A stretch of DNA of 64,000 bases from a virus (lineage: Duplodnaviria > Heunggongvirae > Uroviricota > Caudoviricetes). The position numbers and the translations under genes were made by a program. Under the pieces are notes generated by a model. It saw only the letters and a program-made list of their open reading frames with translations, did no database searches and had not been told where the DNA came from. The stretch lies in the IMG/VR virus record IMGVR_UViG_2565956726_000008. One strand, 5' to 3'. Shown here in pieces: positions 36,305 to 39,057 of the stretch (position 1 is the first letter of the stretch; each line of letters opens with the position of its first letter).

Positions 36305-36317
36305 TAATACTAAATAA

Positions 36318-36336
36318 CCAGCCCTTATGGGGCTGG
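36318..36336. terminator. hairpin between convergent genes (possible terminator)
   Basis: ccagccc-ttat-ggggctgg stem-loop; only a weak U-run on either strand. Confidence 0.3.
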
Positions 36337-36344
36337 CTAATCAT

Positions 36345-37118
36345 TTAGAACTGTTCATTGCCATCGAGGTTAGGTAGCATAATTTTTTCAATCAAGGCGA
36401 GAGCCTTTTTGTCCCGGTCAGCGAAGTATTTCGGGGCATATTGCGGCAACCAAATATTGTTAAAATGTTCTTTGAAATCTGCTAAATATTCATTTGGGTA
36501 CAGCCTTGCAGGGTATACGCGACCATCGGGATATTCATGGTCATAGGTAGGGAATGTTTTGGGTTCTACGTTTCTATTATCTCTTAACCATTGTGAAAAT
36601 ACTCTTCCTTGTGAAATGTCAGGAACCATTTTTTCTGGGAGTGTGTACCCTGCTTGTTCAAGAGGTGCAACCAAGTTGAATGTCAGTTCATTAAGAATAG
36701 AAAAGTGCGTGTGAGGAATTCTACTACGATTAACCATGTACCGTTTTAAATGTACAGGCATTTCTGCTGTAGTTCTTTCCCCTGACATCCATTCACGAAC
36801 CCATCTTGAAACCTGGACTGCAAATTTGGGCGATAGCCACTGCGCTAGATTAATAGCGATGTCAGGATGCACCCATGTCCCTTGGTTTTCAGGTCTTCCA
36901 CCTTTAAATGATTGAATTAACTCCGATATGGGAATTCCCATATCGCGTGATAATTCGTCAAAAAACTCTTGAGTAGTTTTGAGTCTAGTGTAATCAGAGA
37001 GCAGTTTGCCCGCAGTTCTACACATTGATGTGGCGTTTATGTAACCATCTTTGGCACGTAAATGTATTATTTCGCCGTCAATTTCACGAGAAATCAAAGA
37101 TAATTGAAAGGATGTCAT
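36345..37118 (-). CDS. KilA-N domain protein with uncharacterised C-terminal domain
   Basis: 257 aa; N-terminal about 100 aa (EIDGEIIHLRAKDGYINATSMCRTAGKLLSDYTRL...WVHPDIAINLAQWL) matches the KilA-N DNA-binding fold pattern. Confidence 0.55.
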   Translation of the reverse strand: MTSFQLSLISREIDGEIIHLRAKDGYINATSMCRTAGKLLSDYTRLKTTQEFFDELSRDMGIPISELIQSFKGGRPENQGTWVHPDIAINLAQWLSPKFAVQVSRWVREWMSGERTTAEMPVHLKRYMVNRSRIPHTHFSILNELTFNLVAPLEQAGYTLPEKMVPDISQGRVFSQWLRDNRNVEPKTFPTYDHEYPDGRVYPARLYPNEYLADFKEHFNNIWLPQYAPKYFADRDKKALALIEKIMLPNLDGNEQF

Positions 37119-37640
37119 TGAAAATTCCTCAAGTTGGAGAGTTCTGGAACATTAAGGCGAGGTGGCAGTAATGCACCATCTGTAATCTTTTGATACTGAC
37201 GTAATCGGGCCTGATGTGCAACGCCTTGCAAGTATGTAACTCATTGAAAACGATCATTTTTATCTATTGACATCAAATGGCAAACTGTCATTGTGCGGCT
37301 ATGGCAAGTGGCAAATGCTTATAAATCATATGGATATAAATAGTACAGAAAGAGTTGTTTTCTCTAGGATATGAGTATACGCCCAATGCTGATTGGTTGA
37401 ATTTTGTTCTTGTTTTAAAGGGTAAGAGTTTAAAGTGTTGGCAGTGATGTATTGGATAGTTAGAATTGCTGTGGGTGCTTGAGGCTATCTGCCTCGGGCA
37501 TGAACACCAAAGGTAGATAGAGAAAAGCCCCAGTTAACATTACGCGTCCTGCAAGACGTTTAACATTAATCTGAGGCCATATCTATGCGACACATAGAGA
37601 TTAGCCTCTTACGGACCGAAAGGTCAAGGAGAAGCAGGCT

Positions 37641-37766
37641 ATGAAGCAGCAAAAGGCGATGTTAATCGCCCTGATCGTCATCTGTTTAACCGTCATAGTG
37701 ACGGCACTGGTAACGAGGAAAGACCTCTGCGAGGTACGAATCCGAACTGGCAGACGGAGGCTCTGA
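37641..37766 (+). CDS. Hok/Gef-family toxin homolog with divergent, truncated C-terminus (possible pseudogene)
   Basis: 41-aa ORF MKQQKAMLIALIVICLTVIVTALVTRKDLCEVRIRTGRRRL; first 37 residues match HokD/RelF-type toxins as I recall them, then the frame departs from the canonical ...TGQTEVAVFTAYE... end. Confidence 0.55.
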   Translation: MKQQKAMLIALIVICLTVIVTALVTRKDLCEVRIRTGRRRL

Positions 37767-37848: not shown

Positions 37849-38190
37849 CTATTCTTTTTTTGCGGTATAGACTTTTTCGCCTGAGAAGTCTGGAGCTACC
37901 CAAAAGTTAATATTAAACTGAGCATCATCGCTTAGTTCAACACGGTGCCAGTATTGTGGTGGGCTTGTTGCAAAAGCGCCAGCATTAATGACTACTTTTA
38001 TCTCCGGTTCAGTAGCATTCTCATCAGCAAAACCATAATATGTTACAGTACCTTCCATCACGCATAACTGTCCAAAAACACCTGCTGCTGTATTATGATG
38101 TGTTAATAACGCTGAAGGTACGTTCTCTTTTGTGAAGAACGGAGTTGAGCGTTTGATTACCCAGTCTTTAGGAATTCTCTTGTGTGTCAT
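37849..38190 (-). CDS. YeaR-like cupin (DUF1971-type)
   Basis: 113 aa from MTHKRIPKDWVIKRSTPFF; alignable with my recollection of E. coli YeaR (RSTPF..., NIDFFVAP-type end). Confidence 0.5.
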   Translation of the reverse strand: MTHKRIPKDWVIKRSTPFFTKENVPSALLTHHNTAAGVFGQLCVMEGTVTYYGFADENATEPEIKVVINAGAFATSPPQYWHRVELSDDAQFNINFWVAPDFSGEKVYTAKKE

Positions 38191-38558
38191 AACCACCTCC
38201 CATAAAACATGCATTATAAATGCACCTTTTTGAGGGTTATGTCAAGCTGTTATGAAACACATAATTGATATGTTGATTAGAGGAGAAGATAGAATCAATA
38301 TGGTTGTTTTTCGTATAACTATTTGTTTTACTTTTAGTTTGTGCATTCTGTGTGTTAGGAATAACTTATTAAAGTTTAACTAAAAAATCTCGATATAGTC
38401 CGCATAGATTACTGTTACTGAATCTTATTGTGTGCATTAGTTGTGTTCTGAAATTTCAATTTAATTACTTATGATATATTTTTAACGATAAATGTTTTCC
38501 GGGTGAAAGACAGTGGGGGATGAGATAAGCAATATATCATTAATCTTGATTATTTCCA

Positions 38559-38618
38559 GGATGCCTTTACTGTGCATATAAATAAATCATATACGCATCA
38601 AATAATGTAAAGGCATCC
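38559..38618 (+). promoter_or_regulatory. 12-bp perfect inverted repeat followed by a T-run (hairpin / terminator-like)
   Basis: ggatgcctttac (38559-38570) and gtaaaggcatcc (38607-38618), 36-nt spacer, followed by TTTT. Confidence 0.35.
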
Positions 38619-39057
38619 TTTTAGATATATCTTATCAAATGTTAATGATTTGAGTGGGAAACATGATTCCAGAAACTAATCATGCGGCTACTTTATAAAA
38701 ATAATGCCCATATAAAACAGCCAGCGAAAAGGATTACGGATAAAAAAGGAGCGAGATGTGCATAGTTGTTATTTTCCATGTTTAACCACCTTAAATAATT
38801 GATGATGACGGGATGTGCATCTGTAATGCTTTTGTTGAAATGTTATGATAAAAAAGAACTTTTTCATAACATTAAAATGTAATTTATCTAATCGTTTTTA
38901 ATAATAAGTGTTGTATTTCTATCCTTGTATCAGCTATTTGATATGTAGTGTTTGTTCATGTTATGTGGAGCTTTACACCATAGCCAGTTTATTTATACTT
39001 TATTCGTCAGCCTGAACAACTGGCATCTGCTGCACTGCGCCATCGAGAGATTGAGAA

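Follow-up and report, generated by a model that had tools for sequence, protein, structure and literature searches.

The window is the whole stretch of 64,000 nucleotides of DNA that was analyzed, and the gene studied occupies positions 36,345-37,118 on its minus strand. It starts with ATG and encodes a protein of 257 amino acids, as supported by the ORF list, a match to PHROG 6287 and identical copies in E. coli phages and genomes. It is referred to below as the bstA-like gene, while the RefSeq entry for its product (WP_000200358) bears the name 'KilA-N domain-containing protein'. The gene is intact, being 100 % identical in three sequenced E. coli phages, and the 1.3-kb bstA-like locus was found in 117 of 5426 complete E. 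coli genomes, presence being counted at at least 80 % of this length. The same DNA is annotated in phage vB_EcoS-613R10 and in E. coli strain 7/2, and this annotation identifies the host element as a lambdoid prophage at the Rac site. The prophage has the order ttcA-intR-xisR-recET-kilR-sieB, then repressor/cro, O-like and DnaC-like genes, the bstA-like gene and hok, and continues with DUF1971, the Q region, lysis genes, trkG and terminase. The bstA-like gene is antisense to the early-right genes, with the replication genes on one side and a Q-type antiterminator on the other. A preliminary description had placed a minus-strand ORF of 257 codons with an N-terminal KilA-N-type domain in the replication-to-Q interval, bracketed by a hairpin and a hok-like locus, and all of this held.

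Directly 3' of the stop codon lies a hairpin resembling an intrinsic terminator (36,315-36,339, minus strand), with a 10-bp stem containing six GC pairs and a T-rich tail. Homologues of the bstA-like gene have a terminator hairpin at the same place, but it is a different hairpin in each. A weak sigma-70-like promoter candidate, TTGCCA-16-AAAAAT, is located approximately 140 nt upstream of the start (37,256-37,283, minus strand); it is a consensus match that does not exceed shuffle expectation and overlaps one copy of a direct repeat. This repeat, TTTGCCA(T/C)TTG, is present as CAAATGGCAAA and CAAGTGGCAAA at 37,274-37,284 and 37,305-37,315 with a spacing of 31 bp. It covers the -35 element of the sole promoter-like match, and may be a regulator site or due to chance.

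The bstA-like gene is adjoined by a complete hok/sok type I toxin-antitoxin module (37,473-37,766, plus strand). The module consists of sok (37,473-37,643, plus strand; Rfam RF01794, E = 1.9e-23) and the Hok ORF (37,641-37,766, plus strand), annotated by PGAP as 'Hok/Gef family protein' in an identical E. coli genome. A promoter-like site, TTGGCA-17-TAGAAT, was recognized by sequence match next to it (37,438-37,466, plus strand). The PGAP annotation of the identical genome further gives a DUF1971-family gene (37,849-38,214, minus strand). It is followed by approximately 0.8 kb with very short ORFs only (38,215-39,057) and then by a DUF1367 gene. Together, the bstA-like gene, hok/sok and the DUF1971 stretch form a cargo cluster of approximately 3 kb within the replication-to-Q interval.

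Domains and family assignment of the protein

The N-terminal part of the protein is a canonical KilA-N DNA-binding domain (amino acids 14-112; 36,783-37,079, minus strand). Its match to Pfam PF04383 (E = 4.3e-27) scores 94.5 bits and passes the Pfam gathering cut-off of 23.8. In the AlphaFold model of the protein (mean pLDDT 90.7) this domain has an APSES-like predicted fold, similar to the APSES/KilA-N folds of Mbp1, Bqt4 and PCG2 (Foldseek probability 0.97-1.0). The N-terminus of P1 KilA and the fungal proteins Mbp1, Swi4 and PCG2 belong to the same PF04383 family.

The C-terminal part (amino acids ~119-251; 36,366-36,764, minus strand) is a BstA-like domain and the presumed effector, as indicated by PF26567, PADLOC and BLASTP. 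The PADLOC BstA HMM matches amino acids 119-238 (E = 3.2e-21), and PHROG 6287, 'BstA abortive infection system, replication inhibitor', matches amino acids 1-254 (E = 2.7e-89). BLASTP aligned amino acids 125-251 with the founder of the family, BstA of Salmonella phage BTP1, with 32 % identity over 142 amino acids (E = 3e-16). In a large protein collection, the cluster of this protein and its 2652 relatives carry PF26567 together with PF04383. Here PF26567 is a precomputed Pfam annotation that our own Pfam scan of the protein did not report. Proteins with PF26567 are named 'BstA-like C-terminal domain-containing protein' in UniRef. The relatives that represent BstA proper have PF26567 alone, without PF04383. 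Profile-profile comparison (hhalign) of 30-sequence alignments of both subfamilies related the canonical-KilA-N subfamily to BstA proper with 98 % probability (E = 3e-13, 233 columns). BLAST and the PADLOC HMM align the C-terminal domain only, and the N-domain part of the profile alignment has few conserved positions. Invariant positions common to both subfamilies include R126, N130, S140, E144, D167-x-S169-x-G171, H194 and Y207-P208.

Other searches of the protein yielded little. Pfam at E ≤ 1 returned KilA-N and a sub-threshold RHH_3 and no Bro, ANT or KilA-C partner module, NCBIfam gave no match, and the sequence search of the PDB gave marginal matches to Mbp1 only. Foldseek comparison of the full model with the PDB found APSES folds for the N-domain and no solved relative of the C-domain. 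Among the viral structure predictions in BFVD nothing scored below E = 0.1 and none resembles the C-domain. In these PDB and BFVD comparisons the C-domain showed no recognizable catalytic fold. The BstA-like C-domain was also observed within very long proteins, at positions 1088-1219 of P0265 (1230 amino acids), 651-770 of P0313 (1770 amino acids) and 642-762 of P0337 (1656 amino acids). This suggests other domain partnerships and possibly hints at the activity of the domain.

Judged from these comparisons, the protein is a relative of the prophage defence protein BstA rather than an unknown fusion, and a candidate abortive-infection protein of a variant BstA subfamily. The preliminary description was correct in seeing a two-domain KilA-N fusion in a cargo region of which the partner domain decides the function, but the partner, considered unassignable at the time, proved to be BstA-like. 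The analysis of the C-terminal region that it proposed thus gave a domain of known family with no solved structural relative. A standard Bro or antirepressor module, which would have counted against the preliminary description, was not found there by Pfam.

Comparison with BstA and genomic context of the homologues

BstA is a prophage-encoded abortive-infection protein with a KilA-N-like N-domain (amino acids 32-147 of 307) and a separate C-domain; it co-localizes with the DNA of phages, the replication of which it blocks (Owen et al. 2021, PMC8585504). Homologues of BTP1 BstA that have been tested are BstA-Ec of E. coli and BstA-Kp of Klebsiella (PMC8585504). The protein studied here shares the two-domain organization of these three proteins, a KilA-N-type N-terminus and a homologous PF26567 C-domain. 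However, its N-domain is a canonical Pfam KilA-N domain, whereas that of BstA proper shows only remote homology and lacks PF04383. Owen et al. list E. coli bstA genes of 849-897 nt (PMC8585504), compared to 774 nt for the gene studied here, and with 257 amino acids the protein is approximately 50 residues shorter than BstA proper (~300-307 amino acids).

The bstA gene is typically located directly downstream of the prophage repressor gene, and bstA of BTP1 is expressed in the lysogen (PMC8585504). The bstA-like gene is placed differently, approximately 4.4 kb from the repressor gene in the replication-to-Q interval. Its close homologues do occupy the slot downstream of cI, as in BTP1: in E. 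coli phage PhiR5_2 (86 % identity) and in Proteus phage vB_BPM-V3 (81 % identity) the homologue directly follows cI. By analogy with BTP1, this position suggests that these homologues are expressed in the lysogen. An S24/HTH repressor is the upstream neighbour at 21 of 89 non-redundant homologous loci, and more distant homologues adjoin IS elements, AbiTii, SIR2 or a restriction enzyme (NgoFVII-type). The window and the cI-linked versions are similar in DNA sequence only from approximately 20 nt upstream of the start codon to the stop codon, and the mobile unit is therefore essentially the ORF itself. Like bstA, it is a single prophage gene with its own terminator. In this Rac-like E. coli prophage the gene is a stand-alone moron in a non-canonical position. 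In a pan-genome survey of E. coli defence genes, bstA was reported solely from prophages at a tRNA-Arg hotspot, which suggests that the bstA-like gene at the Rac site is not called by standard tools.

The family is widespread. Members with 52-60 % identity were found in many phyla, among which Proteobacteria, Verrucomicrobiota, Bacteroidota, Planctomycetota, Spirochaetia, Nitrospirota, Gracilibacteria and Armatimonadota. Such identity of a ~250-amino-acid protein over distant phyla (loci L006-L085) is unusually strong for a phage accessory gene.

A prophage that encodes BstA escapes its action by means of aba, a DNA-based element that acts only at high copy; the cognate aba is particular to each BstA (PMC8585504). 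The aba of BTP1 is 63 bp long, extends from -29 to +34 of the start codon and is non-palindromic with terminal CCCGCC direct repeats (PMC8585504). In the bstA-like gene the stretch between -29 and +34 lacks CCCGCC repeats and does not resemble BTP1 aba, and a BTP1-type aba at the start codon was rejected on this ground. Instead, the gene carries an intragenic palindrome that is absent from the genes of BstA proper; in both cases a cis DNA element is linked to the gene.

A palindrome within KilA-N coding sequences

A repeat scan revealed a perfect 22-bp palindrome, CGATATGGGAATTCCCATATCG, at 36,924-36,945 in the KilA-N coding sequence, covering codons R58-S65 (DMGIPIS). As single-stranded DNA, the two strands have folding energies of -8.6 and -8.4 kcal/mol (z about -3.8). 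Of 119 distinct homologous genes, 74 carry a palindrome at these codons, often with different arms, examples being CCGAAACGGGAATTCCCGTTTCGG, CCGATGCGGGAATTCCCGCATCGG, CGATATCGGAATTCCGATATCG, AGGTCTGCGGGAATTCCCGCAGACCT and CGATATCGGTATACCGATATCG; heterologous arm types are GAAACGGGAATTCCCGTTTC and GATGCCGGAATTCCGGCATC. A position-resolved scan found it to be the sole recurrent intragenic palindrome of the subfamily (70 of 118 genes), whereas the same type of scan found no such palindrome in 55 distinct genes of BstA proper. No further copies of the palindrome or its core were found in the 64-kb window, and a prophage-wide regulon of such sites was rejected because the site is unique there. Rfam contains no family at the palindrome.

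The two arms change together. Over all 95 distinct 45-nt segments, those without a palindrome included, the covariation score was 0.264, compared to 0.139 ± 0.010 in column shuffles (none of 500 reached 0.264) and at most 0.111 in slid controls. Paired cells amounted to 64 % at the palindrome register and to 30-41 % in slid controls. Codon 60 and Pro63 pair through their third bases, both wobble positions. These form G-C in 48, C-G in 14 and A-T in 4 of the 95 segments, a wobble-wobble pairing that cannot be produced by selection on the protein. The amino acids at the palindrome vary in an antisense-complementary pattern (M/I, T/V, A/A, V/T).

The core of the palindrome, GGAATTCC, derives from the conserved G-I-P motif. 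Inside KilA-N coding sequences such cores are extended by a mean of 5.9 bp (57 distinct sites), but outside them, in the same 2.2 Mb, by 0-1 bp (23 distinct sites). This control led to rejection of the view that the palindrome is a trivial result of the G-I-P codons.

The palindrome is not confined to genes of the BstA-like type. KilA-N genes with other C-termini carry it at the same codons, in a podovirus, a Bacteroides LoVEphage, Planktothrix phage PaV-LD and Synechococcus phage S-SRP02. Among 58 distinct KilA-N genes on viral contigs, 20 of the 24 that encode the BstA C-domain and 24 of the other 34 carried it, while an identical search at control positions 60 nt upstream and downstream gave 4/58 and 0/58. 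A palindrome specific to BstA was rejected, given its presence without the BstA C-domain and its absence from BstA-proper genes. As the KilA-N genes that carry it include some with unrelated C-termini, a BstA-specific role cannot be its primary one.

In several homologues the internal site is missing, and a perfect palindrome built from the same arm motifs lies just beyond the end of the ORF on one side. These relocated sites are TCGATATCG-TTTAAA-CGATATCGA at stop+7, followed by a separate terminator (L016), TTTCGATATCG-TGATCA-CGATATCGAAA at stop+13 (L033), TTTCCCGATATG-ACAATTGT-CATATCGGGAAA at start-18 (L083) and ACCGATGCCG-AGATAC-CGGCATCGGT at stop+14 (L081). The common pattern is one of inverted half-sites, often CGATAT(C/G), 6-8 bp apart and physically tied to the gene, an arrangement that resembles an operator. 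The arm type co-varies most with the contiguous residues 39-45 in the helix-turn-helix region, and more with N-domain than with C-domain columns (one-sided p = 0.015, with phylogeny only partly controlled). This covariation lends weak support to a link between palindrome and protein.

Some further loci deserve mention. At locus L041, a Hydromonas MAG, the KilA-N codons aligned to 36,915-36,954 of the window contain a perfect 34-bp palindrome, AAGTTCCGATGCCGGAATTCCGGCATCGGAACTT, that folds as a single-stranded DNA hairpin with -18.3 kcal/mol (z = -8.5). Two Stenotrophomonas loci (L029 and L034), of a clade without the G-I-P palindrome, carry another perfect palindrome of 18 bp, GAGTTCCTGCAGGAACTC, at approximately nt 150-168, some 30 nt upstream of the normal site. 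REP-like hairpins, AGCCGAGC...GCTCGGCT, are seen at neighbouring Stenotrophomonas loci. Two KilA-N genes sampled from giant-virus MAG contigs (L310 and L327) have no palindrome at the G-I-P-equivalent position, and the palindrome may be restricted to bacterial and phage KilA-N genes.

No description of the KilA-N palindrome was found in the searchable literature. One publication considered as prior art (PMC6563262) was rejected; it deals with KilA-N mRNAs of poxvirus, mimivirus and iridovirus, which serve there only to illustrate a method. As far as checked, the palindrome within KilA-N genes is undescribed, and it is statistically robust.

Proposed role and significance

Taken together, the protein is rather likely to be a BstA-family prophage abortive-infection protein that combines a canonical KilA-N domain with a BstA-like C-domain, the embedded palindrome being a candidate for its own binding site. 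The bstA-like gene would probably be expressed from its own promoter, as a moron in the Rac-like E. coli prophage. As a homologue of BstA from BTP1, E. coli and Klebsiella (PMC8585504), the protein would be expected to associate with the replicating DNA of a superinfecting phage; replication of the phage DNA would be blocked and the infected cell would die without phage release, as in the BstA family. The anatomy of the gene suggests that the palindrome may be bound by the protein's own KilA-N domain. Lying within or touching the ORF, it would travel with the gene to any insertion site. A site that travels with its gene follows the logic of the aba element, and also that of the internal iterons of lambda O. 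Replication of the prophage would amplify the palindrome, which could then act in cognate, aba-like self-recognition or as an autoregulatory site: in a BstA-like protein it might titrate or switch off the protein during the prophage's own replication, and in KilA-N proteins generally it might serve for autoregulation. That the palindrome is the DNA target of the canonical phage KilA-N domain and forms a self-recognition cassette, with the function of an aba-type self-immunity element in BstA-like proteins, is put forward tentatively, as a possibility of rather low probability. Points against a defence role are that identity to validated BstA is limited to the C-domain (32 %), the function of the canonical-KilA-N subfamily being assigned by homology, that the gene is not downstream of the repressor and that the 63-bp BTP1-type aba is absent.

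Lambda O offers a precedent for such an arrangement. The lambda origin lies within the O gene and is made up of dyad-symmetric iterons, to which O itself binds with its N-terminal domain; the four iterons lie in the inter-domain linker of O and have proven origin function. In the bstA-like gene, too, a dyad-symmetric cis site lies within the coding sequence of its proposed binder, such that site and specificity travel together. Unlike in lambda O, there is a single palindrome, it lies within the coding sequence of the DNA-binding domain itself and its binding is only proposed. For phage KilA-N domains, of which no DNA target is known, a palindrome within the coding sequence was not found in the literature searched.

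It is unlikely that the protein is instead a KilA-N transcription regulator, antirepressor or host-killing factor without a role in defence. On that view its C-domain would serve for oligomerisation or partner binding, and the palindrome would be a common operator for autoregulation. The canonical KilA-N domain and the annotation of many KilA-N proteins in phage records as regulators or antirepressors agree with this view, and a palindrome that occurs in KilA-N genes whatever the C-terminal partner fits a general autoregulatory site. However, BstA proteins whose defence role has been validated by experiment have a homologous C-domain, Bro, ANT and KilA-C modules are lacking, and distant homologues adjoin other defence genes. 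Furthermore, close homologues lie right after cI, in the slot that in BTP1 allows expression of bstA in the lysogen (PMC8585504), and an antirepressor or killer made from that slot would be self-defeating. The antirepressor or host-killing reading offered in the preliminary description accordingly found no support, and the defence reading is preferred.

As for the palindrome itself, template-switch correction of quasipalindromes is an established mutational mechanism, and a functionless quasipalindrome seeded by the G-I-P codons (GGAATTCC) could perpetuate itself, being kept perfect by such correction and mimicking compensation. The derivation of the core from the G-I-P motif and the fact that arm changes alter amino acids at tolerant positions are in line with this, yet it seems quite improbable, as GGAATTCC cores elsewhere in the same 2.2 Mb extend by 1 bp at most. 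Moreover, the palindrome persists in high-GC hosts although it requires the rare codons ATA, ATT and GGA, and an identical sequence of 22-24 nt recurs across phyla in genes for proteins that are only ~55 % identical. In two homologues (L247 and L248) the core has been lost to a non-palindromic spacer of 6-8 nt while the arms are still complementary, and where the internal site is missing the same arm motifs form perfect palindromes outside the ORF. A hairpin in the mRNA, which might for example affect the stability of the message, be processed by RNase III, control translation or be bound by the protein, is disfavoured on comparison of the sequences and has a low probability. Every copy does fall inside the transcription unit, even those relocated to start-18 or, ahead of the terminator, to between stop+7 and stop+14, and stems of 9-15 pairs with loops of 4-8 nt would fold stably. 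Among approximately 550 stem pairs of palindrome-bearing sequences, however, mismatches comprise 5 G·T/T·G and 11 A·C/C·A; this reveals no preference for G·U and points to a symmetry of DNA rather than of a sense-strand RNA hairpin. Pairing is strictly Watson-Crick and symmetric on both strands, and no Rfam family matches. The centre is mostly palindromic and shows compensatory changes (GGAATTCC to GGTATACC, TTTAAA to TGATCA), neither of which a hairpin loop needs. Sequence comparison across phyla has shown the palindrome to be conserved by compensatory change, as a selected, DNA-level cis element that is linked to the gene.

The bstA-like gene belongs to a variant subfamily within a known defence family. 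Its RefSeq name conveys the KilA-N domain only, and the canonical-KilA-N subtype of BstA may be under-counted in defence inventories. This part of the locus is ordinary to moderately interesting, and it is the palindrome that raises its interest. It represents a constraint at the nucleic acid level that overrides codon choice, and even amino acid choice, within a protein domain across many phyla. It is a candidate answer to the question which DNA is recognized by the widespread but poorly characterized KilA-N domain, and a candidate for how BstA-type systems tell self from non-self. If the palindrome indeed acts as an aba-type site, the prophage would be able to replicate while foreign phages are aborted.
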